Shown in pieces: positions 1-27,581 of a stretch of 64,000 bases of DNA. A program made the translations under genes and the position numbers. Source of the DNA: Flectonema sp. DT1601. Lineage: Eukaryota. Numbering within the stretch: position 1 is the first letter of the stretch; each line of letters begins with the position of its first letter. The stretch lies in the NCBI GenBank assembly GCA_964019425.1, contig OZ025782.1, forward strand, positions 496,001 to 560,000, in the 5' to 3' direction. Under the pieces are notes generated by a model. The model did not search any database. It had not been told where the DNA came from and saw only the letters and a program-made list of their open reading frames with translations.

Positions 1-356
1 AGGAAGGAAGGGGAATCAAGTTGGAATTGGTATTGTGGCTTATTGTCAATGGTGGGTAATACGGGGAGGGTAACCTTGTCAAATTCGACAAGTCTTTTAA
101 GGGGTGTGTATCGACACACGGGGCCGGACGAAACATTCGACTTTCCACATGCGGGCTTTGAATATGCCCATGTGATAAGCAAGGATGTGTATTGGGATGA
201 GTGGTCCAAAAGGTTAGTTCTAGAAAATGAACAAAAGATGTTAGGCATGTGCCAAAAGGTAACTAATTTGGAATCGCAGGTGGCGTCATTGTTATCGCCA
301 CAGATGCATGGTGCGCAACCCCAGCCACAGATGCATGGTGTGCAACCCCAGCCACA
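1..356 (+). pseudogene. YR-retrotransposon gag, partial (window edge), interrupted in the QP minisatellite
   Basis: Identical to the gag at 10729-12009 up to ccagccaca, then switches to NA-1 sequence. Confidence 0.9.
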
Positions 357-597
357 GAGTTGAATTTCCAGGTGAGATTTGGACTGTTAGCTTTTGGCTA
401 AGGCCCTCCCTGAAGAGCAAGAACAAAAAAACTACTCACACCTGAAGAAAACATACACAAAGAACACACTGTAAGCTGTGTGTGTATTTTGTGTTTGTCA
501 CAACAGGAGAGAAAAGAAAGAATGTCAAGGTTGGTCACCTTGCCTATCAACGCACAACATTGGTGGTCTCTACTAGACCCTGAGTGATCCCACTGGA
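357..597 (-). mobile_element. NA-1 non-coding retroposon, 3'-terminal 240 bp
   Basis: Identical to 18049-18289, with the same junction into gag. Confidence 0.85.
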
Positions 598-634
598 CCA
601 ACGATTCTAAAGCTACAGTTTCTGTACTTTATTG
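597..634 (+). other. Spliced-leader (SL) mini-exon at the 5' end of the LINE
   Basis: ACCAACGATTCTAAAGCTACAGTTTCTGTACTTTATTG matches the recalled diplonemid 39-nt SL (AACCAACGAT...CTACAGTTTCTGTACTTTATTG). It is not followed by the SL-intron GT, so it is not an SL RNA gene. Confidence 0.9.
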
Positions 635-664
635 GAGAGGTAAGACACCCTTTAAAAAAATAAA

Positions 665-6347: not shown

Positions 6348-6556
6348 TTTAAAGATGCGGTTCTTAGACCAAATGAGGAAGTAAACTGAACTCTTTAGTA
6401 ATTGATAAACAAAGAAAACAAAGAAGATACGAAGCCTACGGGAACCCCCCATCCCATCCCCAATCCCCACAAAAAGAAAGTTTACAGAAGAAAGAAAGAA
6501 CAACCGCGCCTAACAGCGCAAACAGCAAAGCAGGTCGAAGGAACCTGCAGTGCACA

Positions 6557-6590
<34 letters not shown>

Positions 6591-6592
<2 letters not shown>

Positions 6593-8053
6593 CCAGCCAC
6601 AGATGCATGGTGTGCAACCCCAGCCACAGATGCATGGTGCGCAACCCCAGCCACAGATGCATGGTGCGCAACCCCAGCCACAAATTCAACAAGAGAGTGG
6701 TATGATGCAACAAATGATGGCACTATTATCGCAAAATCAACAATTATGTCAGATGCAGTTGCAGCATTCATCGGGATTATTAAAAAAGAAGTCAGCAGAT
6801 GTGTGTCAATTGTCACCAGAGAACATCGAATGTCTGGATTTTGATCTAGCGACGGATGCGACTAACGTGTTACAATGGCGCGATATTTTGGCGCAGGGTG
6901 GATCAGAAAGGTTGCTGGATAAACTAGAAAACAAATACTGGTCAGTGCACAGGGGTAAATTGGCCACGAGGGAGTTAAGGGAGTTGAAGGCAGCCTTTGA
7001 AATTGTAAGAGATAATGTGAGGGTGGCAAGTACTAGATCAGCGGACTGGATTACTTCCAAACCATTGGTTCGGAGTATGAATAAATCATTGGAGTCGTTG
7101 ATTATGAAATGGGAGTACACGACGAAAAGGATTAGCTCTGACGATATTGAACGAAGGGTCAAATCAGGGATGTTGTTTGAGAAGGCAGTGAGGATGGCAG
7201 AGGTTGATGCAGAGAAAAAGCACAAGATAGAAATGAGCGGGAAAGGGTATAAGGGGAGTTGGAATCCACGGAATTTCGAGTACAGGGGAAAAGGGTTCTC
7301 GGGAAACGTTGGGGGGGCTGGCAAAGGTCACAAATGAACCGAGGTCAGCCCCGAGTTAGTAAAGCGGTTTTTAAGCCGCGATCAGGGAGGCACTTGCCAA
7401 AGAAGGTCAGTGTCAGAAGAGTTAGCTCAAGTTCCAGATCGTATTTTGGAAATAAGGGAGAAGATTCTGCGATCAGAAGGGGCCGAGGTGTCGACGTTGA
7501 TCGGCAGTCTTATGAAGAACCGAATCGAGGATCAGGTGAGGAGGGTCCAAAGAGGTCGGAACAAAGAGTTTTCAATGGACCTGAACGAGTCGCTGTTAGT
7601 TATGGAAGAGATCGCAGGAAAGATGTGGGCCCAAAGTACGATGCGAAACCGCCAGTGCTTGTGGGATCGTTTATTGATTTGGGTGGAGCGGAACGATGTT
7701 CCGGTAAACCAGGACACAGTGGCGCTGTTTGTGACAGCAACGAAAGTTTCAAAGCAGGGAATGCTGGCTTATTCAAAGGCATTCTCAGGCATGCTGAAGA
7801 GGATGGGATTGGAGAACGAAACGTTGAAGCAGTTGGCAGCGGCGTTGAGAGCGGACGGGGCTGCAGTCCCATTAGATCAAGCGGAGCCAATAGATCGGTT
7901 TACTTTAATCGCATGGGCGATGAGACAAGATGTCCAGTTGAGAGTGGGCTTGTTGATCGCTTGGAAGTCGGTAGCGAGATGGGGAGAAGTTTGGAAGTTG
8001 GGAAGGAGAAATTTCATTTTCGTTTCTGTGGAAGAGATCATTGTGGACTGGTG
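6591..8053 (+). pseudogene. Rest of the interrupted YR element copy (gag 3' half plus truncated YR)
   Basis: Matches 11263-12725, then a deletion jumps to spacer sequence through a tgg microhomology. Confidence 0.9.
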
Positions 8054-8462
8054 GTTTGTATCCCCTGGGTGTTTAGCGTCACCTGTTGAGGTGTAATGTA
8101 TTCTGTTTACTTCTATCCCTTTGTTTTTTTTTTTTTTTTTTTTTATTTCAAACAGGACAGCAGGGGGAAAGTTTGTTTCGTACCCCCCGGGTGCTTAGCG
8201 TCACCCTCCATGCGATGCTTGCGCAGGGAGAGCCAAGGGTCGAGAACCCTGGAGATTACCTTTGTTTCTTTTTGTGACTGGATTGCAGTGGCGCAACCCA
8301 TCACCCCACCTGTTGGTATCTTTTTATTTTTTTTATTTAAAGAAAAAAGCAGGCTAAGTCGCCTGAGCTGGCATCGCCAGAATATTCAACTTCACATGGC
8401 AATGTCAGCTCGTGAAGGGATCCAGTTGGATCAAAGGTTTTCTCCCCCCCCACTCTATTTAT

Positions 8463-9018
8463 CGTCATTGGTGCGCACCTTCGAACAGGAAGGCCAACAC
8501 TGACGGAATTTTTTACTTCTCTTTCATAGTTTACTCAGGGAATGATCACCAAGTCCACTTTTGTGCCTTTTTCTTACTGTTTTTTACTTTAAATTTTTCT
8601 GGTTAAAAATACCAAAAATTGTGCCGTGATCGGGAATTGAACCCCCGACCACGGTTACGTAAGCGATTTAAGGTCGACGACCATAACAACTCGGCTATGC
8701 AGGCTCTGGTACGTCGAAAATTATTTTATACTTATTACTTTTCTGTCCTAACGGAACGGAAAATGAAAAATGTCCTTCCTTATCTAAAATGCACTCTGCA
8801 CCTATTATGTTGGTTCAGCAGTGGCTTATCGAACTTATTAGCTCTCGTTGCACTGGTTAGCGCTGTGTTTGAGACGTTATATTATATCGGTACACTTTTA
8901 ACTAATATGTTACTTCCTTTCCTTAGCAAATTTTGCTCTTTTTGTTATTTCTCTAAAACAAAAGAATGTCTACACCACCAATTGTGGAAATTCCGCATGT
9001 AGAATCTGAGATGGATTT
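8463..9018 (+). repeat. 556-bp local tandem duplication (spacer end, SDR-a, gag start)
   Basis: Sequence restarts at cgtcattggtgcg at 9019; ORF track offset 8619 to 9175. Confidence 0.85.
8622..8704 (-). ncRNA. tRNA-like Pol III unit in SDR-a (also 9178-9260, 15165-15247, 17133-17215, 23940-24022, 26116-26198)
   Basis: Minus strand GCCTGCATAGCCGAGTTG...GGTTCAATTCCC...GGCA then TTTTT: A box, B box and terminator. Acceptor and anticodon stems are mispaired, so not a canonical tRNA. Confidence 0.65.
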
Positions 9019-9265
9019 CGTCATTGGTGCGCACCTTCGAACAGGAAGGCCAACACTGACGGAATTTTTTACTTCTCTTTCATAGTTTACTCAGGGAATG
9101 ATCACCAAGTCCACTTTTGTGCCTTTTTCTTACTGTTTTTTACTTTAAATTTTTCTGGTTAAAAATACCAAAAATTGTGCCGTGACCGGGAATTGAACCC
9201 CCGACCACGGTTACGTAAGCGATTTAAGGTCGACGACCATAACAACTCGGCTATGCAGGCTCTGG

Positions 9266-10467
9266 TTTTTTTTTTTTTTTTTTTTGGTTACACTCGTCTG
9301 TGCTTCCAGACTCTTTGTTTTTGTTCTTTTCACTTCTTTGTTTTGTCTTTCTTTTATACTTTCTTTTGGTTTAAGTCTGACAAATTGGAAAACACGGGAA
9401 ACATAGGTAGGCTCCGCCTGAGGACGTAAGAAGAGCGGCAACGGAAAAATAAGTGGTCACGCGTCCTTGAAATTGGACACATGAAGCTAATTCGGTTACC
9501 ATTCCTACCATCGATAAGGAAAAACAAAGAATCGAGCATATAACTAGAGCGGTGGTCAAAGACCACTTGAACAGCCCGAAGGCCTGCCCTCAAGAGAAAT
9601 TTATAAGGAGAATAGGAGAAGAAGGAGAAAGGAGTATTGGAAGGGACACTGAGACAACACCGAAGGTGATGTGCAGTTACCCAACCAGGAGATGATTGAT
9701 AATGATGAAAATACTAAATATTGATAAAACACTTAAATGGCGACTACGTGTCACCTACACAATTCCAAAGTCTCAGGTTGGATGCTTGTTCCATCCACCT
9801 GATCAACATCGCTACTGAAGGAAGCCAGCTGGTGGCAAAGATTGAGCCAAGACTGGCAGGAATGCCGTTGATGAGGATTAGATCACTTGATCGGTCCCAT
9901 TTGCCTGTCAATGTAGAAAAGCCAAGGATTTCATATCTGGCTGCATCGAGTTTCTGTGATGGACAGCCTACGAGTAGGTGGAGTTGGTTGGATGGAGCGC
10001 TATGGCAGAATGGACATATGATGGCTTTCCGCCAGTTTTGCATCAGTGGATGACACCCCGTTCTAAAATTCGCAATTCTGATTTCATCGCTCCTTTTCAT
10101 GTCGGGAGGATATTTTATCGCGGCACCTTTGACGGTGTTTTTATAGCAAGTGTAACCAATTCTGTTCCAAATGTCCTTCGTGATCCCCCTCCTCACTCGG
10201 GATTTGTGATAGAAGAAGGATCCTCGGATTGGGATTTGAGGGAGGTATCTGTTGTGAGCCGATTTCTTAGCAAGTTCATCAACTTCGTCGTGTGCTTCTA
10301 TCCCCATGTGAGAAGGGATGAATTGAAGATGTACTTTCATACCGCAGTTCCGTAGGTTCTCGAGGATGCCGAGGGATCTGGTGTTTCTCTGTTTACACCT
10401 GCCACCCTTCAACTCGTCCAACAATGATTTTGAGTCGGTATAGATTCTGACTGACTTAGTTAGCCCG
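9266..10467 (-). mobile_element. 5'-truncated second APE-type LINE (RNase H C-terminus, CCHC, 3' UTR, poly(A))
   Basis: YTDSKS, FIPSHMGIEAHDEVDELAK, CPFC..H..C in ORF 9744-10424; poly(T) at 9266-9286; TSD tctgg(t) at 9261 and 10468. Confidence 0.9.
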
Positions 10468-10728
10468 TCTGGTACGTCGAAAATTATTTTATACTTATTA
10501 CTTTTCTGTCCTAACGGAACGGAAAATGAAAAATGTCCTTCCTTATCTAAAATGCACTCTGCACCTATTATGTTGGTTCAGCAGTGGCTTATCGAACTTA
10601 TTAGCTCTCGTTGCACTGGTTAGCGCTGTGTTTGAGACGTTATATTATATCGGTACACTTTTAACTAATATGTTACTTCCTTTCCTTAGCAAATTTTGCT
10701 CTTTTTGTTATTTCTCTAAAACAAAAGA

Positions 10729-12009
10729 ATGTCTACACCACCAATTGTGGAAATTCCGCATGTAGAATCTGAGATGGATTTAGATTCAATTCTGTTTGAG
10801 GATTTGAGGACGGTGAGAGCACAATCACCACGTGCCACCATCGGGGAAGCAGGGACGTTTTGGGATCCCCAATCCAAAATGTCCGAAGAGATGATGAAAA
10901 ACAATTCGTTGGCCTTGATAGGAAGAGAAGCGGTGTATTGTATGAGGAAGGAAGGGGAATCAAGTTGGAATTGGTATTGTGGCTTATTGTCAATGGTGGG
11001 TAATACGGGGAGGGTAACCTTGTCAAATTCGACAAGTCTTTTAAGGGGTGTGTATCGACACACGGGGCCGGACGAAACATTCGACTTTCCACATGCGGGC
11101 TTTGAATATGCCCATGTGATAAGCAAGGATGTGTATTGGGATGAGTGGTCCAAAAGGTTAGTTCTAGAAAATGAACAAAAGATGTTAGGCATGTGCCAAA
11201 AGGTAACTAATTTGGAATCGCAGGTGGCGTCATTGTTATCGCCACAGATGCATGGTGCGCAACCCCAGCCACAGATGCATGGTGTGCAACCCCAGCCACA
11301 GATGCATGGTGCGCAACCCCAGCCACAGATGCATGGTGCGCAACCCCAGCCACAAATTCAACAAGAGAGTGGTATGATGCAACAAATGATGGCACTATTA
11401 TCGCAAAATCAACAATTATGTCAGATGCAGTTGCAGCATTCATCGGAATTATTAAAAAAGAAGTCAGCAGATGTGTGTCAATTGTCACCAGAGAACATCG
11501 AATGTCTGGATTTTGATCTAGCGACGGATGCGACTAACGTGTTACAATGGCGCGATATTTTGGCGCAGGGTGGATCAGAAAGGTTGCTGGATAAACTAGA
11601 AAACAAATACTGGTCAGTGCACAGGGGTAAATTGGCCACGAGGGAGTTAAGGGAGTTGAAGGCAGCCTTTGAAATTGTAAGAGATAATGTGAGGGTGGCA
11701 AGTACTAGATCAGCGGACTGGATTACTTCCAAACCATTGGTTCGGAGTATGAATAAATCATTGGAGTCGTTGATTATGAAATGGGAGTACACGACGAAAA
11801 GGATTAGCTCTGACGATATTGAACGAAGGGTCAAATCAGGGATGTTGTTTGAGAAGGCAGTGAGGATGGCAGAGGTTGATGCAGAGAAAAAGCACAAGAT
11901 AGAAATGAGCGGGAAAGGGTATAAGGGGAGTTGGAATCCACGGAATTTCGAGTACAGGGGAAAAGGGTTCTCGGGAAACGTTGGGGGGGCTGGCAAAGGT
12001 CACAAATGA
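10729..12009 (+). CDS. Gag-like ORF1 of the YR element (426 aa)
   Basis: First ORF after SDR-a; QMHGxQPQP repeats; G/K-rich C-terminus; repeated in each array unit. Confidence 0.8.
   Translation: MSTPPIVEIPHVESEMDLDSILFEDLRTVRAQSPRATIGEAGTFWDPQSKMSEEMMKNNSLALIGREAVYCMRKEGESSWNWYCGLLSMVGNTGRVTLSNSTSLLRGVYRHTGPDETFDFPHAGFEYAHVISKDVYWDEWSKRLVLENEQKMLGMCQKVTNLESQVASLLSPQMHGAQPQPQMHGVQPQPQMHGAQPQPQMHGAQPQPQIQQESGMMQQMMALLSQNQQLCQMQLQHSSELLKKKSADVCQLSPENIECLDFDLATDATNVLQWRDILAQGGSERLLDKLENKYWSVHRGKLATRELRELKAAFEIVRDNVRVASTRSADWITSKPLVRSMNKSLESLIMKWEYTTKRISSDDIERRVKSGMLFEKAVRMAEVDAEKKHKIEMSGKGYKGSWNPRNFEYRGKGFSGNVGGAGKGHK
11245..11352 (+). repeat. 27-bp coding minisatellite x4 (CAGATGCATGGTGYGCAACCCCAGCCA)
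   Basis: Direct tandem repeat. Confidence 0.95.
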
Positions 12010-14795
12010 ACCGAGGTCAGCCCCGAGTTAGTAAAGCGGTTTTTAAGCCGCGATCAGGGAGGCACTTGCCAAAGAAGGTCAGTGTCAGAAGAGTTAGCTC
12101 AAGTTCCAGATCGTATTTTGGAAATAAGGGAGAAGATTCTGCGATCAGAAGGGGCCGAGGTGTCGACGTTGATCGGCAGTCTTATGAAGAACCGAATCGA
12201 GGATCAGGTGAGGAGGGTCCAAAGAGGTCGGAACAAAGAGTTTTCAATGGACCTGAACGAGTCGCTGTTAGTTATGGAAGAGATCGCAGGAAAGATGTGG
12301 GCCCAAAGTACGATGCGAAACCGCCAGTGCTTGTGGGATCGTTTATTGATTTGGGTGGAGCGGAACGATGTTCCGGTAAACCAGGACACAGTGGCGCTGT
12401 TTGTGACAGCAACGAAAGTTTCAAAGCAGGGAATGCTGGCTTATTCAAAGGCATTCTCAGGCATGCTGAAGAGGATGGGATTGGAGAACGAAACGTTGAA
12501 GCAGTTGGCAGCGGCGTTGAGAGCGGACGGGGCTGCAGTCCCATTAGATCAAGCGGAGCCAATAGATCGGTTTACTTTAATCGCATGGGCGATGAGACAA
12601 GATGTCCAGTTGAGAGTGGGCTTGTTGATCGCTTGGAAGTCGGTAGCGAGATGGGGAGAAGTTTGGAAGTTGGGAAGGAGAAATTTCATTTTCGTTTCTG
12701 TGGAAGAGATCATTGTGGACTGGTGGGATGTTCCGAAGGGACGAAGGGAAGATCCCTTCAGGCCGTCCAGATGGGTAGTGATAAGAGGATACCTGACATC
12801 GGAGATAGCACAGGGCTTGCAAATGATGGGAAACTTTATAGCTCTAACAAGGGTATCAACAAGAAGTCTGGATGCTTTGTGGAGAAAGGACCTGTTAATG
12901 AAGAAGTTTTCAGCCCATTCAATAAAAAGGGGATCGATTTCTCATATTATGGGTCTGATGTCAACTGGAAGCAAAATCGACGAGGTCGTCATGGGAAGAC
13001 TGCTGAAGCATTCTTCGAAGAGCGATCCCTTTTCAGGGGTAACGATTCGGTATGGAGGAGACCCGGTGAGCATGGCCCGAGCATTGAGAACGGGAGAGAT
13101 AACGGTGTTGTTGTGAGAAGACATAATATTTGTAGACGACCGAAACGATCGGTATTACCAAGATCTTTAGAAGAAAAGAATTCCCCCCTGCATGTAACGA
13201 AAATTGAACCCATGTCCATTTTATTTGTAAAGGAAAGAATGTCGCAAAAACGGCTGAAAAGATTTAATTTTGTATGGGACTTAACATTTTATCCACACAA
13301 AGTATGCCACAATACCAGTTCCACAGGTCCGCTTGATCCTCATGCTTCAACCCTTGACTTCCATTCTGATTTTGATCATGTGATGAATTTTTCGGAGAAG
13401 GTGAGTTCGTTTTCTCGACTGCATGCTGATTTACTTGTGGAGAACGGGATCGCTCAGGAGACATCACAACCGAGTGAAGTTGAGAACATTCCGTTCACTG
13501 TGGTTGAGCAGAAGGCAACTGGTCTGCGCCAGAGGTTCATTCTTTGGACGAAGGAGTCAAATGAACGTTTGGTTGATGATGGTTATGTTGCTGATGTGCC
13601 CTTGGGGCATATCTCGGAATATCTGGACTCGGTGCTTCTTGATTGTGCAAGCGGAAGGGATTTCAGGACTGGTTTTTATCAGGTCGAGATTCCTCATGAT
13701 GCTCGCAAGTTCTTTAGTTTTAGATCAGACGATGGCCAGTTTTTTGAATTGACTCGGTTACCTATGGGTCATTCATGTGCACCAGAAATTATGCACACAT
13801 TAGCTGCTACCATCGCAGGTCATCCTGATTATGTGAAGCCGGACATCGCGATTCATGATGTAAGAGTAGATGTTTGGATCGATAACATTAGGTATTCTGG
13901 TCCAGCGAAGGAGGTGAAAGCTAGGACGACTGAACTTGATGGAACAGCTATGAGGGCTTCTGCAACTTGGAAGCAGGCTGATTCTTTCGATCTCTCTGTG
14001 GAGTATGAATTTTTAGGTGTCCAGTTTAGCCATCTAAGTAAGACTGTTGTTGTTTCTAAGAGATTACAGAGCAAGATTACTTCTGTGGATTTATTTTTGG
14101 TGTCAGCCTCTGGCTTGGAATCGTTGATGGGTAGATTGATGCATGCATCGGCTGTTTCTGGTGTATCTCCTGGGAGATTCTGGTTTGCCTTGAAGTTTAT
14201 TAGACGGATTATTAATAAGATTAATCGAGGTATTCTTGGTCTTGACGATGCGGTGCATGTCCCTCGTTCGGTACGATTGGAATTGTCTAGGTGGATGGTT
14301 GATGCTGTTAAATTGCGAACTATTAAAAAGATACTCCATGCTTCGAAACTGTTGACTGTATTTGTGGACGCTTCCTTAGAGGGATGGGGAGGTGTTGTAG
14401 TAGAACAGTCAGGTGCCCTTACTGTTGTAGGCGACATTTGGAGGCAAGAAAAAGGACTTCACATTAATATTCTCGAGGCAAAGGCTTTGCTTAATACTTT
14501 GTTAGCGTTGGACTTGTGGGATCTAAAAGGATTTAGGCTTGATATCAGGGTAGACAATACTTCTGTTATGGGGGCAGTTAGGAAAAGACAATGCCAGAAG
14601 AACAAAATCCTGAATGATGTAGTTTTGGCAGTTTCTGATTGGCTAATTTTTAAAAAGGTAGTTTTCAGTGTCAAGTATATTAAGTCTGCGTTGAATCCTG
14701 CAGACGGTCCTTCCAGAACTTCTATGGGCCTACTTTCATCTGATAAACTGCGATCTCAAGTCATACAAGCGGTGGGGCTGTTCTTCCGCACATAA
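12006..14795 (+). CDS. Reverse transcriptase-RNase H of the YR element (also 20781-23570)
   Basis: DFRTGFYQV, RLPMG..APE, WIDN, FLGV (RT); VDAS..GWG, INILE, VDNT, NPAD..SR (DIRS-type RNase H). First in-frame ATG is at 12006. Confidence 0.92.
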   Translation: MNRGQPRVSKAVFKPRSGRHLPKKVSVRRVSSSSRSYFGNKGEDSAIRRGRGVDVDRQSYEEPNRGSGEEGPKRSEQRVFNGPERVAVSYGRDRRKDVGPKYDAKPPVLVGSFIDLGGAERCSGKPGHSGAVCDSNESFKAGNAGLFKGILRHAEEDGIGERNVEAVGSGVESGRGCSPIRSSGANRSVYFNRMGDETRCPVESGLVDRLEVGSEMGRSLEVGKEKFHFRFCGRDHCGLVGCSEGTKGRSLQAVQMGSDKRIPDIGDSTGLANDGKLYSSNKGINKKSGCFVEKGPVNEEVFSPFNKKGIDFSYYGSDVNWKQNRRGRHGKTAEAFFEERSLFRGNDSVWRRPGEHGPSIENGRDNGVVVRRHNICRRPKRSVLPRSLEEKNSPLHVTKIEPMSILFVKERMSQKRLKRFNFVWDLTFYPHKVCHNTSSTGPLDPHASTLDFHSDFDHVMNFSEKVSSFSRLHADLLVENGIAQETSQPSEVENIPFTVVEQKATGLRQRFILWTKESNERLVDDGYVADVPLGHISEYLDSVLLDCASGRDFRTGFYQVEIPHDARKFFSFRSDDGQFFELTRLPMGHSCAPEIMHTLAATIAGHPDYVKPDIAIHDVRVDVWIDNIRYSGPAKEVKARTTELDGTAMRASATWKQADSFDLSVEYEFLGVQFSHLSKTVVVSKRLQSKITSVDLFLVSASGLESLMGRLMHASAVSGVSPGRFWFALKFIRRIINKINRGILGLDDAVHVPRSVRLELSRWMVDAVKLRTIKKILHASKLLTVFVDASLEGWGGVVVEQSGALTVVGDIWRQEKGLHINILEAKALLNTLLALDLWDLKGFRLDIRVDNTSVMGAVRKRQCQKNKILNDVVLAVSDWLIFKKVVFSVKYIKSALNPADGPSRTSMGLLSSDKLRSQVIQAVGLFFRT
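12082..13116 (+). CDS. Tyrosine recombinase (also 20857-21891); true start uncertain
   Basis: Catalytic R (ARWGE), HSIKRG, LLKH, TIRY. Confidence 0.9.
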   Translation: MSEELAQVPDRILEIREKILRSEGAEVSTLIGSLMKNRIEDQVRRVQRGRNKEFSMDLNESLLVMEEIAGKMWAQSTMRNRQCLWDRLLIWVERNDVPVNQDTVALFVTATKVSKQGMLAYSKAFSGMLKRMGLENETLKQLAAALRADGAAVPLDQAEPIDRFTLIAWAMRQDVQLRVGLLIAWKSVARWGEVWKLGRRNFIFVSVEEIIVDWWDVPKGRREDPFRPSRWVVIRGYLTSEIAQGLQMMGNFIALTRVSTRSLDALWRKDLLMKKFSAHSIKRGSISHIMGLMSTGSKIDEVVMGRLLKHSSKSDPFSGVTIRYGGDPVSMARALRTGEITVLL

Positions 14796-14842
14796 TTACA
14801 CTTAATCTTAATATTTCAATATCATTCTCTTTACTGGCGTTG

Positions 14843-15752
14843 GGGTGTTTCTTCTTGAGGTTCGCTATTGGTGTACCTGTTGTTTCTGGCTTGTTGCACC
14901 TCTTGCCTCGGTGTTTTTCAAAGTCTTGGGTAACCGACCTCTCGAAGATGCAACATTACCCCGACGTCAGTTGTTTGTGTTTAATCTCTTTAACATTATA
15001 ATTATAATTTAGTATCCATTTATTTATTCAGTCTTAATTACACAATATGGACGATGATGGTCATTCTCATAGTTTACTCAGGGAATGATCACCAAGTCCA
15101 CTTTTGTGCCTTTTTCTTACTGTTTTTTACTTTAAATTTTTCTGGTTAAAAATACCAAAAATTGTGCCGTGACCGGGAATTGAACCCCCGACCACGGTTA
15201 CGTAAGCGATTTAAGGTCGACGACCATAACAACTCGGCTATGCAGGCTCTGGTACGTCGAAAATTATTTTATACTTATTACTTTTCTGTCCTAACGGAAC
15301 GGAAAATGAAAAATGTCCTTCCTTATCTAAAATGCACTCTGCACCTATTATGTTGGTTCAGCAGTGGCTTATCGAACTTATTAGCTCTCGTTGCACTGGT
15401 TAGCGCTGTGTTTGAGACGTTATATTATATCGGTACACTTTTAACTAATATGTTACTTCCTTTCCTTAGCAAATTTTGCTCTTTTTGTTATTTCTCTAAA
15501 ACAAAAGAATTTCCCACCCTCCCACCCTGGGTGTTTCTTCTTGAGGTTCGCTATTGGTGTACCTGTTGTTTCTGGCTTGTTGCACCTCTTGCCTCGGTGT
15601 TTTTCAAAGTCTTGGGTAACCGACCTCTCGAAGATGCAACATTACCCCGACGTCAGTTGTTTGTGTTTAATCTCTTTAACATTATAATTATAATTTAGTA
15701 TCCATTTATTTATTCAGTCTTAATTACACAATATGGACGATGATGGTCATTC
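14843..15752 (+). repeat. Split direct repeats: b1 14843-15066, a2 15067-15510, b2 15529-15752 (a1 = 17035-17478 type)
   Basis: 224-bp b repeated; 444-bp a identical to the sequence immediately before the gag ATG. Confidence 0.92.
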
Positions 15753-16146
15753 CCCAGGGTTGAACCTTGGGAAAAAAACAAACAATAAACACAGTGTAGA
15801 CAAACACCCGCCGGACATCTGCAGAGCAGCGATCGATGTCGATGTCTTCGTTGTCGAACTTCCTGGCGTTTATGTTTTTGTTTTTAACAACAACACAACA
15901 CCAACTAACAGGTTTGTCTCATTGCCCGTTCTTTCTTGTTTCCCTTTGCCGCCGGAAGAACGAAGGTCGACGGAGGTCCGAAGCATTGCTTGCGATGATG
16001 TTCCGGTATGTGTTGCGTCTCTGTTATTTGTTTGTTTCAACTCAATTGGTTCATCTCAGGTTTTAGAAGTCTTCGTCCTGTTCGTTGGGAAGGGCCTGAA
16101 TCAAAAGTTCACTGCCCCTATTCCTCTCCCAAATTTCTTATTCAGC
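15753..16146 (+). mobile_element. NA-3, putative retroposon 3' end inside the spacer (also 24736-25129); 5' limit uncertain
   Basis: 16051-16146 aligns by eye with the NA-1 3' end, including the GGGC/CAAAA stem-loop and an attcagc terminus. Confidence 0.55.
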
Positions 16147-17034
16147 TTGCCACATGACTGTGTGACATTATTGCTACATTGTAGCTCCCCTACAAAAACC
16201 TTATTTTTTGCAGTTGTCTTTTGGTTGTAGCAACTTTTATTTTATGCTTTTCTAATGTCCCAAAGTTGGTTTATTTTACTTTTTTTTTTCTGCAAGGGAA
16301 CAGTCCAAAGCATAAGTCCGAACAGCCCTAAGGCCAGTGAACGCACTGATTGTTAGGTATTGTATTCCAGGGAAAGTTTGGTTTGTATACTTTATTTTTA
16401 TTTTATTTTATTTAATTTGTTAAAAGAAAACAGGTAACTTTACATGAGCATCGGCTCGAACGGCTCTGGCGAAGCGAGTGAACGAGTCTGATTGCTGAGT
16501 ATTGTATTCTGTTTTCTTGTTCTTTTTTTAATTTATTTCAAACAGGGCAACAGGGGGAAAGTTTGGTTTGTATCCCCTGGGTGTTTAGCGTCACCTGTTG
16601 AGGTGTAATGTATTCTGTTTACTTCTATCCCTTTGTTTTTTTTTTTTTTTTTTTTTATTTCAAACAGGACAGCAGGGGGAAAGTTTGTTTCGTACCCCCC
16701 GGGTGCTTAGCGTCACCCTCCATGCGATGCTTTCGCAGGGAGAGCCAAGGGTCGAGAACCCTGGAGATTACCTTTGTTTCTTTTTGTGACTGGATTGCAG
16801 TGGCGCAACCCATCACCCCACCTGTTGGTATCTTTTTATTTTTTTTATTTAAAGAAAAAAGCAGGCTAAGTCGCCTGAGCTGGCATCGCCAGAATATTTA
16901 ACTTCACATGGCAATGTCAGCTCGTGAAGGGATCCAGTTGGATCAAAGGTTTTCTCCCCCCCACTCTATTTATCGTCATTGGTGCGCACCTTCGAACAGG
17001 AAGGCCAACACTGACGGAATTTTTTACTTCTCTT
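15753..17034. repeat. Constant 1.28-kb non-coding spacer of the YR array (also 24736-26017; partial 8051-8522)
   Basis: Identical between units; contains internal imperfect duplications and hairpins. Confidence 0.85.
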
Positions 17035-18048
17035 TCATAGTTTACTCAGGGAATGATCACCAAGTCCACTTTTGTGCCTTTTTCTTACTGTTTTTTACTT
17101 TAAATTTTTCTGGTTAAAAATACCAAAAATTGTGCCGTGACCGGGAATTGAACCCCCGACCACGGTTACGTAAGCGATTTAAGGTCGACGACCATAACAA
17201 CTCGGCTATGCAGGCTCTGGTACGTCGAAAATTATTTTATACTTATTACTTTTCTGTCCTAACGGAACGGAAAATGAAAAATGTCCTTCCTTATCTAAAA
17301 TGCACTCTGCACCTATTATGTTGGTTCAGCAGTGGCTTATCGAACTTATTAGCTCTCGTTGCACTGGTTAGCGCTGTGTTTGAGACGTTATATTATATCG
17401 GTACACTTTTAACTAATATGTTACTTCCTTTCCTTAGCAAATTTTGCTCTTTTTGTTATTTCTCTAAAACAAAAGAATGTCTACACCACCAATTGTGGAA
17501 ATTCCGCATGTAGAATCTGAGATGGATTTAGATTCAATTCTGTTTGAGGATTTGAGGACGGTGAGAGCACAATCACCACGTGCCACCATCGGGGAAGCAG
17601 GGACGTTTTGGGATCCCCAATCCAAAATGTCCGAAGAGATGATGAAAAACAATTCGTTGGCCTTGATAGGAAGAGAAGCGGTGTATTGTATGAGGAAGGA
17701 AGGGGAATCAAGTTGGAATTGGTATTGTGGCTTATTGTCAATGGTGGGTAATACGGGGAGGGTAACCTTGTCAAATTCGACAAGTCTTTTAAGGGGTGTG
17801 TATCGACACACGGGGCCGGACGAAACATTCGACTTTCCACATGCGGGCTTTGAATATGCCCATGTGATAAGCAAGGATGTGTATTGGGATGAGTGGTCCA
17901 AAAGGTTAGTTCTAGAAAATGAACAAAAGATGTTAGGCATGTGCCAAAAGGTAACTAATTTGGAATCGCAGGTGGCGTCATTGTTATCGCCACAGATGCA
18001 TGGTGCGCAACCCCAGCCACAGATGCATGGTGTGCAACCCCAGCCACA

Positions 18049-20074
18049 GAGTTGAATTTCCAGGTGAGATTTGGACTGTTAGCTTTTGGCTAAGGCCCTC
18101 CCTGAAGAGCAAGAACAAAAAAACTACTCACACCTGAAGAAAACATACACAAAGAACACACTGTAAGCTGTGTGTGTATTTTGTGTTTGTCACAACAGGA
18201 GAGAAAAGAAAGAATGTCAAGGTTGGTCACCTTGCCTATCAACGCACAACATTGGTGGTCTCTACTAGACCCTGAGTGATCCCACTGGATCTCTCATCGT
18301 TCATAGTACCCTGTGTGAAGTTATAAAATCAAAGGTAAACTATGAACTACAAATGACTTAGCCTGTTATTATAATGCCACAGGCAGGCCCTGCATTCAGC
18401 AACTATCCAGCAGTGCTTGGATGTCCTGATTTTCTTCTAAAAAAAAGAAAGAAAAACAAAACTGTAGCTGGGATCACTCAGGATCAACAGACTACCAATG
18501 CTACCTGTTGTACTTGCTCACTATGGGGGGTGATGCCAAACACCCAGAAGTACTAAACTGCTTTCCTTCTTGCTGCCCAGGAGTTTCTGACCAGAACTAA
18601 TAGAAAATAAAAAGTAGATGGGAAACAATAAAAAGTAAAATGGATATAACTGAAGTTAAACAAGACAAATGAAGTAACAGACCAGAACAGAAAGAGGATT
18701 GTAATAGAAGATTACAAATAAAAAAATGCAAGTATCAACACATAATCAAGATACACCAGCAGCTAACAAACAACATAAAATTGAAGATCAGTTGCCAGAG
18801 TATTTCAACCATGGTAGAATACTCGCCCCTCTGGCAGGGATTATCCCAGACTTGTCCTTTAATTTAGTTGGACACCATGGCTTACAACCCTTCCAGAGGG
18901 AAGCACCATTATGACTTCTATTTTTTTTCTTCAAGAAAATCATAAGGTGGGAACAAAGAAAAATGCTAAGAGGAACCCCCTATTAACACCTAAGACATCT
19001 AAACTGCAGCCCAGCTTATGCCCAATGCACTAACAGGTCATTCCCTCACACTCAGATCAAAAAATCAAAGTTCAGAGTGCATCTTAGCGTGAATGAGAGA
19101 ATTTCCTCCCGCTTATTTTGAACAAAAGGGATAGGAGAAGGGATAGAAAACGAACATAAAAATAAAATTCTAAGTGAGAAACACTTAGCAGAAACACTTA
19201 GCAGCTTTTAAGGAGCTGAAAAGCAAAAAAAAAATCTAAGTGAGAAACACTTAGTAGAAACAATTTGTAGCTAATTAAGCTGAAAATAAAAAAATAAAAA
19301 ATTTCTAAGTGAGAAAAACTTAGCAACTTTTAGAACAAATATTTCAGTAAATAACCTGTAATGATTAAACCATTACAAGTTTGATGCCAAAACTGACAAG
19401 GACTGAGTTGAATTTCCAGGTGAGATTTGGACTGTTAGCTTTTGGCTAAGGCCCTCCCTGAAGAGCAAGAACAAAAAAACTACTCACACCTGAAGAAAAC
19501 ATACACAAAGAACACACTGTAAGCTGTGTGTGTATTTTGTGTTTGTCACAACAGGAGAGAAAAGAAAGAATGTCAAGGTTGGTCACCTTGCCTATCAACG
19601 CACAACATTGGTGGTCTCTACTAGACCCTGAGTGATCCCACTGGATCTCTCATCGTTCATAGTACCCTGTGTGAAGTTATAAAATCAAAGGTAAACTATG
19701 AACTACAAATGACTTAGCCTGTTATTATAATGCCACAGGCAGGCCCTGCATTCAGCAACTATCCAGCAGTGCTTGGATGTCCTGATTTTCTTCTAAAAAA
19801 AAGAAAGAAAAACAAAACTGTAGCTGGGATCACTCAGGATCAACAGACTACCAATGCTACCTGTTGTACTTGCTCACTATGGGGGGTGATGCCAAACACC
19901 CAGAAGTACTAAACTGCTTTCCTTCTTGCTGCCCAGGAGTTTCTGACCAGAACTAATAGAAAATAAAAAGTAGATGGGAAACAATAAAAAGTAAAATGGA
20001 TATAACTGAAGTTAAACAAGACAAATGAAGTAACAGACCAGAACAGAAAGAGGATTGTAATAGAAGATTACAAA
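18049..20074 (-). mobile_element. Tandem NA-1: full copy 18049-19401 plus truncated copy 19405-20074
   Basis: gagttgaatttcc restarts at 19405; gag resumes at 20078 with no clear TSD. Confidence 0.88.
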
Positions 20075-23000
20075 GATTGCATGGTGCGCAACCCCAGCCA
20101 CAGATGCATGGTGCGCAACCCCAGCCACAAATTCAACAAGAGAGTGGTATGATGCAACAAATGATGGCACTATTATCGCAAAATCAACAATTATGTCAGA
20201 TGCAGTTGCAGCATTCATCGGAATTATTAAAAAAGAAGTCAGCAGATGTGTGTCAATTGTCACCAGAGAACATCGAATGTCTGGATTTTGATCTAGCGAC
20301 GGATGCGACTAACGTGTTACAATGGCGCGATATTTTGGCGCAGGGTGGATCAGAAAGGTTGCTGGATAAACTAGAAAACAAATACTGGTCAGTGCACAGG
20401 GGTAAATTGGCCACGAGGGAGTTAAGGGAGTTGAAGGCAGCCTTTGAAATTGTAAGAGATAATGTGAGGGTGGCAAGTACTAGATCAGCGGACTGGATTA
20501 CTTCCAAACCATTGGTTCGGAGTATGAATAAATCATTGGAGTCGTTGATTATGAAATGGGAGTACACGACGAAAAGGATTAGCTCTGACGATATTGAACG
20601 AAGGGTCAAATCAGGGATGTTGTTTGAGAAGGCAGTGAGGATGGCAGAGGTTGATGCAGAGAAAAAGCACAAGATAGAAATGAGCGGGAAAGGGTATAAG
20701 GGGAGTTGGAATCCACGGAATTTCGAGTACAGGGGAAAAGGGTTCTCGGGAAACGTTGGGGGGGCTGGCAAAGGTCACAAATGAACCGAGGTCAGCCCCG
20801 AGTTAGTAAAGCGGTTTTTAAGCCGCGATCAGGGAGGCACTTGCCAAAGAAGGTCAGTGTCAGAAGAGTTAGCTCAAGTTCCAGATCGTATTTTGGAAAT
20901 AAGGGAGAAGATTCTGCGATCAGAAGGGGCCGAGGTGTCGACGTTGATCGGCAGTCTTATGAAGAACCGAATCGAGGATCAGGTGAGGAGGGTCCAAAGA
21001 GGTCGGAACAAAGAGTTTTCAATGGACCTGAACGAGTCGCTGTTAGTTATGGAAGAGATCGCAGGAAAGATGTGGGCCCAAAGTACGATGCGAAACCGCC
21101 AGTGCTTGTGGGATCGTTTATTGATTTGGGTGGAGCGGAACGATGTTCCGGTAAACCAGGACACAGTGGCGCTGTTTGTGACAGCAACGAAAGTTTCAAA
21201 GCAGGGAATGCTGGCTTATTCAAAGGCATTCTCAGGCATGCTGAAGAGGATGGGATTGGAGAACGAAACGTTGAAGCAGTTGGCAGCGGCGTTGAGAGCG
21301 GACGGGGCTGCAGTCCCATTAGATCAAGCGGAGCCAATAGATCGGTTTACTTTAATCGCATGGGCGATGAGACAAGATGTCCAGTTGAGAGTGGGCTTGT
21401 TGATCGCTTGGAAGTCGGTAGCGAGATGGGGAGAAGTTTGGAAGTTGGGAAGGAGAAATTTCATTTTCGTTTCTGTGGAAGAGATCATTGTGGACTGGTG
21501 GGATGTTCCGAAGGGACGAAGGGAAGATCCCTTCAGGCCGTCCAGATGGGTAGTGATAAGAGGATACCTGACATCGGAGATAGCACAGGGCTTGCAAATG
21601 ATGGGAAACTTTATAGCTCTAACAAGGGTATCAACAAGAAGTCTGGATGCTTTGTGGAGAAAGGACCTGTTAATGAAGAAGTTTTCAGCCCATTCAATAA
21701 AAAGGGGATCGATTTCTCATATTATGGGTCTGATGTCAACTGGAAGCAAAATCGACGAGGTCGTCATGGGAAGACTGCTGAAGCATTCTTCGAAGAGCGA
21801 TCCCTTTTCAGGGGTAACGATTCGGTATGGAGGAGACCCGGTGAGCATGGCCCGAGCATTGAGAACGGGAGAGATAACGGTGTTGTTGTGAGAAGACATA
21901 ATATTTGTAGACGACCGAAACGATCGGTATTACCAAGATCTTTAGAAGAAAAGAATTCCCCCCTGCATGTAACGAAAATTGAACCCATGTCCATTTTATT
22001 TGTAAAGGAAAGAATGTCGCAAAAACGGCTGAAAAGATTTAATTTTGTATGGGACTTAACATTTTATCCACACAAAGTATGCCACAATACCAGTTCCACA
22101 GGTCCGCTTGATCCTCATGCTTCAACCCTTGACTTCCATTCTGATTTTGATCATGTGATGAATTTTTCGGAGAAGGTGAGTTCGTTTTCTCGACTGCATG
22201 CTGATTTACTTGTGGAGAACGGGATCGCTCAGGAGACATCACAACCGAGTGAAGTTGAGAACATTCCGTTCACTGTGGTTGAGCAGAAGGCAACTGGTCT
22301 GCGCCAGAGGTTCATTCTTTGGACGAAGGAGTCAAATGAACGTTTGGTTGATGATGGTTATGTTGCTGATGTGCCCTTGGGGCATATCTCGGAATATCTG
22401 GACTCGGTGCTTCTTGATTGTGCAAGCGGAAGGGATTTCAGGACTGGTTTTTATCAGGTCGAGATTCCTCATGATGCTCGCAAGTTCTTTAGTTTTAGAT
22501 CAGACGATGGCCAGTTTTTTGAATTGACTCGGTTACCTATGGGTCATTCATGTGCACCAGAAATTATGCACACATTAGCTGCTACCATCGCAGGTCATCC
22601 TGATTATGTGAAGCCGGACATCGCGATTCATGATGTAAGAGTAGATGTTTGGATCGATAACATTAGGTATTCTGGTCCAGCGAAGGAGGTGAAAGCTAGG
22701 ACGACTGAACTTGATGGAACAGCTATGAGGGCTTCTGCAACTTGGAAGCAGGCTGATTCTTTCGATCTCTCTGTGGAGTATGAATTTTTAGGTGTCCAGT
22801 TTAGCCATCTAAGTAAGACTGTTGTTGTTTCTAAGAGATTACAGAGCAAGATTACTTCTGTGGATTTATTTTTGGTGTCAGCCTCTGGCTTGGAATCGTT
22901 GATGGGTAGATTGATGCATGCATCGGCTGTTTCTGGTGTATCTCCTGGGAGATTCTGGTTTGCCTTGAAGTTTATTAGACGGATTATTAATAAGATTAAT

Positions 23001-24140
23001 CGAGGTATTCTTGGTCTTGACGATGCGGTGCATGTCCCTCGTTCGGTACGATTGGAATTGTCTAGGTGGATGGTTGATGCTGTTAAATTGCGAACTATTA
23101 AAAAGATACTCCATGCTTCGAAACTGTTGACTGTATTTGTGGACGCTTCCTTAGAGGGATGGGGAGGTGTTGTAGTAGAACAGTCAGGTGCCCTTACTGT
23201 TGTAGGCGACATTTGGAGGCAAGAAAAAGGACTTCACATTAATATTCTCGAGGCAAAGGCTTTGCTTAATACTTTGTTAGCGTTGGACTTGTGGGATCTA
23301 AAAGGATTTAGGCTTGATATCAGGGTAGACAATACTTCTGTTATGGGGGCAGTTAGGAAAAGACAATGCCAGAAGAACAAAATCCTGAATGATGTAGTTT
23401 TGGCAGTTTCTGATTGGCTAATTTTTAAAAAGGTAGTTTTCAGTGTCAAGTATATTAAGTCTGCGTTGAATCCTGCAGACGGTCCTTCCAGAACTTCTAT
23501 GGGCCTACTTTCATCTGATAAACTGCGATCTCAAGTCATACAAGCGGTGGGGCTGTTCTTCCGCACATAATTACACTTAATCTTAATATTTCAATATCAT
23601 TCTCTTTACTGGCGTTGGGGTGTTTCTTCTTGAGGTTCGCTATTGGTGTACCTGTTGTTTCTGGCTTGTTGCACCTCTTGCCTCGGTGTTTTTCAAAGTC
23701 TTGGGTAACCGACCTCTCGAAGATGCAACATTACCCCGACGTCAGTTGTTTGTGTTTAATCTCTTTAACATTATAATTATAATTTAGTATCCATTTATTT
23801 ATTCAGTCTTAATTACACAATATGGACGATGATGGTCATTCTCATAGTTTACTCAGGGAATGATCACCAAGTCCACTTTTGTGCCTTTTTCTTACTGTTT
23901 TTTACTTTAAATTTTTCTGGTTAAAAATACCAAAAATTGTGCCGTGACCGGGAATTGAACCCCCGACCACGGTTACGTAAGCGATTTAAGGTCGACGACC
24001 ATAACAACTCGGCTATGCAGGCTCTGGTACGTCGAAAATTATTTTATACTTATTACTTTTCTGTCCTAACGGAACGGAAAATGAAAAATGTCCTTCCTTA
24101 TCTAAAATGCACTCTGCACCTATTATGTTGGTTCAGCAGT

Positions 24141-24348
24141 GAGTTGAATTTCCAGGTGAGATTTGGACTGTTAGCTTTTGGCTAAGGCCCTCCCTGAAGA
24201 GCAAGAACAAAAAAACTACTCACACCTGAAGAAAACATACACAAAGAACACACTGTAAGCTGTGTGTGTATTTTGTGTTTGTCACAACAGGAGAGAAAAG
24301 AAAGAATGTCAAGGTTGGTCACCTTGCCTATCAACGCACAACATTGGT
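24141..24348 (-). mobile_element. 5'-truncated NA-1 (208 bp) in SDR-a2
   Basis: Splits cagcagt|ggcttatc; fixed gagttg end; gtgg microhomology at the other end. Confidence 0.9.
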
Positions 24349-26017
24349 GGCTTATCGAACTTATTAGCTCTCGTTGCACTGGTTAGCGCTGTGTTTGAGA
24401 CGTTATATTATATCGGTACACTTTTAACTAATATGTTACTTCCTTTCCTTAGCAAATTTTGCTCTTTTTGTTATTTCTCTAAAACAAAAGAATTTCCCAC
24501 CCTCCCACCCTGGGTGTTTCTTCTTGAGGTTCGCTATTGGTGTACCTGTTGTTTCTGGCTTGTTGCACCTCTTGCCTCGGTGTTTTTCAAAGTCTTGGGT
24601 AACCGACCTCTCGAAGATGCAACATTACCCCGACGTCAGTTGTTTGTGTTTAATCTCTTTAACATTATAATTATAATTTAGTATCCATTTATTTATTCAG
24701 TCTTAATTACACAATATGGACGATGATGGTCATTCCCCAGGGTTGAACCTTGGGAAAAAAACAAACAATAAACACAGTGTAGACAAACACCCGCCGGACA
24801 TCTGCAGAGCAGCGATCGATGTCGATGTCTTCGTTGTCGAACTTCCTGGCGTTTATGTTTTTGTTTTTAACAACAACACAACACCAACTAACAGGTTTGT
24901 CTCATTGCCCGTTCTTTCTTGTTTCCCTTTGCCGCCGGAAGAACGAAGGTCGACGGAGGTCCGAAGCATTGCTTGCGATGATGTTCCGGTATGTGTTGCG
25001 TCTCTGTTATTTGTTTGTTTCAACTCAATTGGTTCATCTCAGGTTTTAGAAGTCTTCGTCCTGTTCGTTGGGAAGGGCCTGAATCAAAAGTTCACTGCCC
25101 CTATTCCTCTCCCAAATTTCTTATTCAGCTTGCCACATGACTGTGTGACATTATTGCTACATTGTAGCTCCCCTACAAAAACCTTATTTTTTGCAGTTGT
25201 CTTTTGGTTGTAGCAACTTTTATTTTATGCTTTTCTAATGTCCCAAAGTTGGTTTATTTTACTTTTTTTTTTCTGCAAGGGAACAGTCCAAAGCATAAGT
25301 CCGAACAGCCCTAAGGCCAGTGAACGCACTGATTGTTAGGTATTGTATTCCAGGGAAAGTTTGGTTTGTATACTTTATTTTTATTTTATTTTATTTAATT
25401 TGTTAAAAGAAAACAGGTAACTTTACATGAGCATCGGCTCGAACGGCTCTGGCGAAGCGAGTGAACGAGTCTGATTGCTGAGTATTGTATTCTGTTTTCT
25501 TGTTCTTTTTTTAATTTATTTCAAACAGGGCAACAGGGGGAAAGTTTGGTTTGTATCCCCTGGGTGTTTAGCGTCACCTGTTGAGGTGTAATGTATTCTG
25601 TTTACTTCTATCCCTTTGTTTTTTTTTTTTTTTTTTTTTATTTCAAACAGGACAGCAGGGGGAAAGTTTGTTTCGTACCCCCCGGGTGCTTAGCGTCACC
25701 CTCCATGCGATGCTTTCGCAGGGAGAGCCAAGGGTCGAGAACCCTGGAGATTACCTTTGTTTCTTTTTGTGACTGGATTGCAGTGGCGCAACCCATCACC
25801 CCACCTGTTGGTATCTTTTTATTTTTTTTATTTAAAGAAAAAAGCAGGCTAAGTCGCCTGAGCTGGCATCGCCAGAATATTTAACTTCACATGGCAATGT
25901 CAGCTCGTGAAGGGATCCAGTTGGATCAAAGGTTTTCTCCCCCCCACTCTATTTATCGTCATTGGTGCGCACCTTCGAACAGGAAGGCCAACACTGACGG
26001 AATTTTTTACTTCTCTT

Positions 26018-27581
26018 TCATAGTTTACTCAGGGAATGATCACCAAGTCCACTTTTGTGCCTTTTTCTTACTGTTTTTTACTTTAAATTTTTCTGGTTAA
26101 AAATACCAAAAATTGTGCCGTGACCGGGAATTGAACCCCCGACCACGGTTACGTAAGCGATTTAAGGTCGACGACCATAACAACTCGGCTATGCAGGCTC
26201 TGGTACGTCGAAAATTATTTTATACTTATTACTTTTCTGTCCTAACGGAACGGAAAATGAAAAATGTCCTTCCTTATCTAAAATGCACTCTGCACCTATT
26301 ATGTTGGTTCAGCAGTGGCTTATCGAACTTATTAGCTCTCGTTGCACTGGTTAGCGCTGTGTTTGAGACGTTATATTATATCGGTACACTTTTAACTAAT
26401 ATGTTACTTCCTTTCCTTAGCAAATTTTGCTCTTTTTGTTATTTCTCTAAAACAAAAGAATGTCTACACCACCAATTGTGGAAATTCCGCATGTAGAATC
26501 TGAGATGGATTTAGATTCAATTCTGTTTGAGGATTTGAGGACGGTGAGAGCACAATCACCACGTGCCACCATCGGGGAAGCAGGGACGTTTTGGGATCCC
26601 CAATCCAAAATGTCCGAAGAGATGATGAAAAACAATTCGTTGGCCTTGATAGGAAGAGAAGCGGTGTATTGTATGAGGAAGGAAGGGGAATCAAGTTGGA
26701 ATTGGTATTGTGGCTTATTGTCAATGGTGGGTAATACGGGGAGGGTAACCTTGTCAAATTCGACAAGTCTTTTAAGGGGTGTGTATCGACACACGGGGCC
26801 GGACGAAACATTCGACTTTCCACATGCGGGCTTTGAATATGCCCATGTGATAAGCAAGGATGTGTATTGGGATGAGTGGTCCAAAAGGTTAGTTCTAGAA
26901 AATGAACAAAAGATGTTAGGCATGTGCCAAAAGGTAACTAATTTGGAATCGCAGGTGGCGTCATTGTTATCGCCACAGATGCATGGTGCGCAACCCCAGC
27001 CACAGATGCATGGTGTGCAACCCCAGCCACAGATGCATGGTGCGCAACCCCAGCCACAGATGCATGGTGCGCAACCCCAGCCACAAATTCAACAAGAGAG
27101 TGGTATGATGCAACAAATGATGGCACTATTATCGCAAAATCAACAATTATGTCAGATGCAGTTGCAGCATTCATCGGAATTATTAAAAAAGAAGTCAGCA
27201 GATGTGTGTCAATTGTCACCAGAGAACATCGAATGTCTGGATTTTGATCTAGCGACGGATGCGACTAACGTGTTACAATGGCGCGATATTTTGGCGCAGG
27301 TTGGATCAGAAAGGTTGCTGGATAAACTAGAAAACAAATACTGGTCAGTGCACAGGGGTAAATTGGCCACGAGGGAGTTAAGGGAGTTGAAGGCAGCCTT
27401 TGAAATTGTAAGAGATAATGTGAGGGTGGCAAGTACTAGATCAGCGGACTGGATTACTTCCAAACCATTGGTTCGGAGTATGAATAAATCATTGGAGTCG
27501 TTGATTATGAAATGGGAGTACACGACGAAAAGGATTAGCTCTGACGATATTGAACGAAGGGTCAAATCAGGGATGTTGTTT
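26018..27581 (+). pseudogene. Third YR copy, truncated within gag at the NA-2 junction
   Basis: gag matches up to GMLF, then NA-2 terminus at 27586. Confidence 0.9.

Follow-up and report, generated by a model that had tools for sequence, protein, structure and literature searches.

The window analyzed here, a 64-kb stretch of DNA from Flectonema sp. DT1601, carries near its left end an intact two-ORF LINE that begins with a spliced leader (SL) exon, ends in a poly(A) tract, and is embedded in copies of two other repeats, referred to as X and Y (Table 1). Both ORFs are open, and the start of ORF2 overlaps the stop of ORF1 by 8 nt. ORF1 has no Pfam family at the cut-off, and its matches in the Atlas are all at 0.84 or lower. 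ORF2 has the Pfam domains PF14529/PF03372, PF00078, and PF00075, and its nearest named relatives are transcripts of Flectonema neradi, with 44-59% identity across the RT region. A good match to the cis-splice donor consensus (AG/GTAAG) lies at 635-644, 5 nt behind the leader. On its letters, this 5'-UTR donor could be a possible route for skipping ORF1; no pyrimidine-rich acceptor is evident before ORF2.

Table 1. Coordinates of the LINE, its flanks, and related features (window positions unless a contig is named).
Feature	Position	Strand	Remark
Host element Y (TATE/VIPER-like, DIRS-order), left flank	1..358	+	motifs read by eye in translations
Repeat X, first 241 bp (left flank, outside LINE)	357..597	+	
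SL exon, nt 2-39	597..634	+	0 mismatches to exons of L037, L069, L070; single in window
LINE 5' UTR, 30 nt	635..664	+	upstream ATG absent; three AG dinucleotides in first 10 nt
ORF1, 574 aa	665..2389	+	charged N-terminus, probable C-terminal coiled coil
ORF2, 1321 aa	2382..6347	+	APE, RT, RNase H, C-terminal Cys/His motif
3' UTR	6348..6557	+	
Poly(A), 33 A	6558..6590	+	last two A fit target too
Host element Y, right flank, continuing as in copies that lack X (11261, 26992)	6589..6630	+	repeats 317-358 (42 bp)
X copies/fragments (five more)	18049, 19405, 24141, 47652 (-), 52342		
X stretches in window	18049-20074, 24141-24350, 46467-47652, 51955-53454		
Leader in contig L160	4397-4416	-	5'-truncated
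Leader in contig L161	5524-5588		euglenozoan-type, without intron

Flanking repeats and the insertion site

Repeat X is a 2-kb element that looks non-coding; its direct repeats measure 673 bp, and it shows no clear duplication of its target. Three of its copies reach the point of the LINE junction, and all three continue without SL. Because the DNA upstream of the LINE is X, whose other copies go on in this way, the 5' boundary of the LINE is fixed independently, and the 241 bp of another repeat ahead of the leader place the start of the element within one base of the cap position. X fragments break at X positions 210, 221, and 241; the copy at 51955 is broken at the same position as at the LINE junction, which may be a favored break site.

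Element Y was assigned using the TATE/VIPER layout described in the available text of PMC12278014. It is tandemly repeated and contains gag-like, tyrosine-recombinase-like, and RT/RNase H-like frames, none with a significant Pfam match, together with split repeats. The near-identical TATE/VIPER-like tandem array with split direct repeats spans 10468-27581, 1-358, and 6589-9266, with several units interrupted or deleted. Positions 1-597 have an identical counterpart at 17693-18289, where a Y copy contains X, and the right flank resumes 42 bp upstream of the X site. A simple target-site duplication is absent at the LINE insertion: 42 bp of Y are repeated, yet 241 bp of X stand between this repeat and the element. 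The window contains a Y unit with X and, next after it, one without, the matching points lying 8,702 bp apart. Two routes fit these flanks, i.e., a deletion of ~8.7 kb between neighboring Y units or a switch of the completed cDNA to a Y copy with X in it; under either route, the 5' end of the leader was where the LINE template stopped.

Some other interpretations of this region were discarded. A 12-bp ingi-like duplication, suggested by a 27-bp tandem repeat, was dropped once X had been mapped; 357-596 was ruled out as the LINE's own promoter/ribozyme, being repeat X; and a sigma-70 scan is inapplicable to a eukaryote. Elsewhere in the window, a second non-LTR element on the reverse strand (33323-38620) has a 1765-codon open frame with RT, as well as zinc and RLE-like motifs read by eye, and no SL at its 5' end. 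A 28S rRNA fragment of 238 bp lies at 54437-54674 (reverse strand), and long arrays of A/T-rich 110-290-bp satellites, on both strands, lie within 27977-51030.

The spliced leader in the LINE and elsewhere

The leader equals nt 2-39 of the exons of SL RNA genes in public contigs; SL nt 1 is missing from the LINE copy, which thus holds 38 of the 39 letters. Since A597 fits both SL and the flanking repeat X (a 1-bp overlap), the unambiguous SL amounts to 37 nt, and the first base of the LINE is SL nt 2 or 3. No other match occurs in the window on either strand with up to 6 mismatches in 38 allowed, and the chance expectation for 37 fixed SL bases in the window is ~7e-18. After the exon, the window has GA where true SL genes have GT, and the locus lacks the arrangement of an SL gene, in which a 39-nt exon runs into a GT intron. 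Both the SL intron and the LINE 5' UTR begin with G, and the gene match can be read as one base longer. In Rfam, the SL region had no match and the 5' region of the LINE gave chance matches only.

The first-pass annotation had described 38 nt of SL, 30 nt before the ORF1 ATG (665), with no SL intron and a poly(A) end, and its coordinates proved exact. It had proposed to give up the idea if the host SL differed from this sequence, and the leader turned out to equal the exons of real genes. Its concern about SL gene arrays is answered, for this copy, by the flanks, which are repeats X and Y, and by the single SL match in the window. The locus has the marks of an SL-tagged retrocopy, i.e., an intronless DNA-encoded SL exon at the 5' boundary, upstream of an ORF, and poly(A) at the 3' boundary.

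Metagenome contigs were scanned with the 3' 23 nt of the leader, giving at least 121 stretches, of which 120 loci were classed. Among the matches listed, 108 resemble mRNAs in having one leader, placed at the end of the contig, eight have two stacked leaders (seven exact, one with a mismatch), and four are SL-gene-like. Three of these four (L037, L069, and L070) have a 39-nt exon, the last 38 nt of which match the window with 0 mismatches, followed by GT; the fourth (L047) has five differing positions, and an additional exact SL gene was found in L158. Sequencing runs X1 and X2 match 597-635; of the loose ends of this match, one looks like upstream DNA with A as its last base and the other like an intron beginning with GT. 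LINE pieces also occur in X1 and X2, 8 of 10 and 8 of 12 records, respectively, being 99+% alike, and we infer that the loose ends come from one contig and from the window's own species. We take the leader type to be the diplonemid one, in agreement with the Flectonema neradi matches, and the host is accordingly likely a diplonemid, probably marine. As described in the available text of PMC10161547, the SL exon of Diplonema papillatum measures 39 bp, and essentially all mRNAs of this species carry the SL.

The spacing between leader and start codon can be compared with that of other SL-headed contigs: among the matches listed, the median SL-to-ATG distance is 39.5 nt (IQR 33-47), with 30 nt or less in 19 of 116, placing the 30-nt UTR of the LINE within this range, at its short end. 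Three AGs in the first 10 nt, as in the LINE, recur in one of the 116 SL-headed contigs among the matches listed, a feature noticed post hoc and therefore weak. The eight contigs with two stacked diplonemid-type leaders (L009, L015, L041, L055, L060, L099, L116, and L124) are either expressed SL retrocopies or library artefacts; among the matches listed, the second leader starts at SL nt 6 in five, nt 7 in two, and nt 19 in one. Intronless euglenozoan-type leaders were also seen in five contigs filed under bacterial genomes (L159, L160, L161, L162, and L163). In L160, direct repeats, each at least 47 bp long, enclose the truncated leader and ~24 nt, with a homolog of the TATE-like RT nearby.

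Giant-virus contigs also carry DNA copies of euglenozoan SL before ORFs (L001-L004 and L125-L149), in IMGVR_UViG_3300046534_001516, GVMAG-M-3300027833-19, and 3300035665_000006; one locus, L131, has another leader type. Four of the leaders are exact 39-nt copies, and the others are worn or retain the 5' part only. A total of 140,656 bp of IMGVR_UViG_3300046534_001516 was read, in stretches selected around exact matches to the leader; here, a leader-like start lies 10-30 nt downstream of 19 of 53 AAAA[AT]TGAA-type motifs, at a spacing of exactly 17 nt in 15 of those 19, and the motif stands upstream of 19 of the 22 leader starts. The same arrangement of motif and leader occurs in L150, filed as a bacterial genome. 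For comparison, the mimivirus early motif is given as AAAATTGA in the available text of PMC5294985. Among the proteins encoded by contig IMGVR_UViG_3300046534_001516 are an NCLDV major capsid protein and probable cap methyltransferases resembling PCIF1 and VP39. The viral leaders likely point to a diplonemid host and to host-like ends of viral mRNAs. For Bodo saltans virus, independence from trans-splicing has been suggested, and the available text of PMC5871332 does not mention an encoded leader. Among the papers listed in a literature search largely outside subscription journals, none reports a virus-encoded SL, and the giant-virus leaders may merit more attention than the LINE itself.

The LINE has close relatives in other contigs. 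Clustering at 90% placed 39 ORF2 proteins in one cluster and 11 ORF1 proteins in another, and, by these sequences, the family is young and multi-copy. Two related families comprise 31 and 91 ORF2 proteins. Four ORF1 sequences on eight contigs have a common start, some copies are apparently 5'-truncated, and an identical ORF1 protein is found on three contigs. The ORF1 cluster of 11 contains variants of 574 and 630 aa; the two variants represented by P0153 and P0156 have their N- and C-terminal parts in common and differ in the middle, a pattern that suggests recombination between subfamilies. No listed piece in three sequencing runs bridges the SL-LINE junction; the nearest run contig covers 654-859, apparently belongs to the 630-aa variant, and ends four letters further. 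The ORF1-start pattern had 0 matches in metagenome contigs, and a profile of the LINE family gave 80 pattern matches in viral contigs, none confirmed. Likewise, tblastn with ORF1, ORF2, and eight relatives found no match in 124 SL loci, 41 of them of only ~320 bp, and no LINE match in nine loci from genome contigs.

Template of the copy and competing readings

We consider it highly probable that the template of this intact LINE copy, which starts at SL nt 2, was a LINE mRNA that had been trans-spliced and polyadenylated, and that reverse transcription reached the capped end of this message. A mature trans-spliced mRNA as template would account for the exon-exact 3' junction of the leader, the lack of an intron, an end within one base of the cap, the UTR length, and the poly(A) tract. 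Copying to the very end of such a message, as the first-pass annotation had proposed, is thereby supported for one copy, with SL nt 1 missing. In this scheme, the parent element would have been transcribed, probably by read-through, and the SL trans-spliced to an AG lying immediately 5' of what is now base 635. As in LINE biology generally, a nick in Y at 6589 would then have been the site at which ORF2 began reverse transcription from the poly(A). The copy runs to SL nt 2 or 3, and the first nucleotide may have been lost at a base-methylated cap A that cannot be copied: the trypanosome cap 4 carries m6,6A at nt 1 (PMC13069679, available text), a base that would block pairing and could account for the loss, with the proviso that this is one case and the diplonemid cap may differ. 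At this same end, the cDNA is joined to X through the 1-bp overlap, presumably by way of either the Y-array deletion or a template jump. Against this reading stands the missing normal target duplication, and the 5' junction may have been reworked after insertion. Further points against it are the single copy, the absence of any listed run piece across the SL-LINE junction and of a LINE ORF behind the leader in the 124 loci, the G that the SL intron and the UTR share, a UTR at the short end of its range, and the unspliced RNAs reported for trypanosomatid ingi/L1Tc (PMC1874656).

A new round of expression could proceed by read-through and fresh trans-splicing at AG 636, 638, or 643, for which the 3' half of the leader copy, rich in pyrimidines, is a putative tract; the 20 nt preceding these three AGs contain 65, 60, and 45% pyrimidines, respectively. 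Re-use of an AG inside the SL, which the first-pass annotation had also considered, is not seen here. Such use should leave a stacked relic, of which there is none near 597, and none of the eight stacked leaders begins right after an SL-internal AG. A second leader fragment near 597 would be expected only in second-round copies, so its absence is compatible with a first-round copy.

The same junction has also been weighed against other origins. An exon-exact junction is equally expected from a one-off chimera in which the RT, having come to the end of a LINE RNA that had not been spliced, switched templates to an unattached SL exon, the splicing intermediate that ends in a 3' OH. U6-L1 fusions are template-jump chimeras of this sort, and the odd 5' flank could itself be the product of such a jump. 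However, this would require a LINE template whose end lies 30 nt ahead of the ORF1 start codon, just where a splice acceptor is expected, and the 30-nt UTR of an unspliced RNA leaves no space for a 77-nt promoter/ribozyme; a search of 301-1000 for an HDV-like pattern, with an unbenchmarked descriptor, gave 0 matches. A jump is, for these reasons, unlikely. The viral contigs, which keep the same leader in DNA before genes, raise instead the idea of an SL captured once and carried in cis as a fixed 5' part of the family, with transcripts that start or are cut at the leader and are never re-spliced. The absence of stacked relics is compatible with such unchanged inheritance. Yet the viral leader lies 17 nt behind a promoter-like motif, whereas unrelated repeat DNA precedes 597 with no early-promoter-like motif, which counts against a virus-like cis leader, and the loss of nt 1 would accumulate across cycles without re-splicing; we regard this origin as quite improbable.

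Left and right flanks that represent different states of the host repeat, and the want of an independent contig bridging the junction, are what an assembly or library chimera joining X to the SL-LINE would produce. But the two ends lie within one and the same 27-bp repeat tract of Y, three contigs have an identical ORF1 protein, and a false joint between X and SL leaves the fusion of SL and LINE in DNA unexplained, making an artefact very unlikely. Finally, the leader could be a target remnant, i.e., the exon kept after insertion into an SL RNA gene. In the available texts of PMC12278014 and PMC4640811, the CRE clade (SLACS, CZAR, and CRE1/2), whose members insert in SL RNA genes (PMC12278014), and the nematode NeSL elements likewise bring SL next to a non-LTR retrotransposon. 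These elements use RLE and target SL RNA genes, whereas the LINE described here encodes APE and is inserted in a DIRS-order repeat. Moreover, SL promoter DNA is absent upstream, no remainder of the SL exon or intron follows the poly(A), and the window has no second SL, so a target remnant is hardly credible.

A broader extension of the mRNA-template reading concerns the whole lineage, and taken jointly it is no more than tentative. Diplonemid LINEs of this kind might have no promoter/ribozyme of their own, every full-length copy being headed by the host leader, transcribed by host polycistronic read-through, and re-capped. The pyrimidine-rich half of the copied leader might direct splicing to the next AG, and the spare AGs behind it might form a stock of acceptors consumed a few bases per generation. 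The proposal that trans-splicing defines the 5' end of the family draws on one copy.

Relation to known elements

Like Tbingi and L1Tc of the INGI clade, as presented in the available texts of PMC12278014 and PMC1874656, the LINE has APE, RT, and RNase H, a poly(A) tail, and a euglenozoan host with universal trans-splicing; the three domains (by Pfam) and the poly(A) are all found here. In contrast, ingi and L1Tc start with the 77-nt promoter/ribozyme and have unspliced RNA, whereas the copy described here starts with SL and has a separate ORF1. SL and the 30 nt behind it occupy its whole 5' end, and since the ingi 5' signature is absent, the element was not filed as INGI. No trypanosomatid-named protein appears among the 103 listed matches or the best 120 of 383, most of which are nameless. 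In the accessible part of PMC1874656, the authors describe unspliced RNA as a general trait of trypanosomatid LINEs, whose RNAs avoid trans-splicing so that new copies keep the 5' promoter.

Outside the Euglenozoa, the SL-tagged retrogenes of dinoflagellates, with their DinoSL/DinoRL relics (PMC12014239, as far as its text is available), also have the leader in DNA upstream of a coding sequence, an arrangement attributed to a reverse-transcribed trans-spliced mRNA. They differ from the present case, in which the cargo is an autonomous retrotransposon, the host is a euglenozoan, the leader is near-complete, and there is no stacked relic. Along similar lines, six SL-bearing transposable elements of Schistosoma mansoni were proposed to be trans-spliced and retro-transcribed (PMC5832876). 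The available part of that paper leaves chimeric assembly open and gives no anatomy, while the present analysis maps the boundary, ORFs, tail, and flanks of one intact copy.

A euglenozoan LINE capped by SL was not met with among the papers listed in the literature search, subscription journals being largely outside its coverage. A diplonemid LINE copied from an SL-capped message would represent the other solution to that of trypanosomatid LINEs: it would take the capping and translation route of the host and give up a 5' end of its own. SL-capped copies would, in addition, record the natural stop of reverse transcription on a euglenozoan cap.
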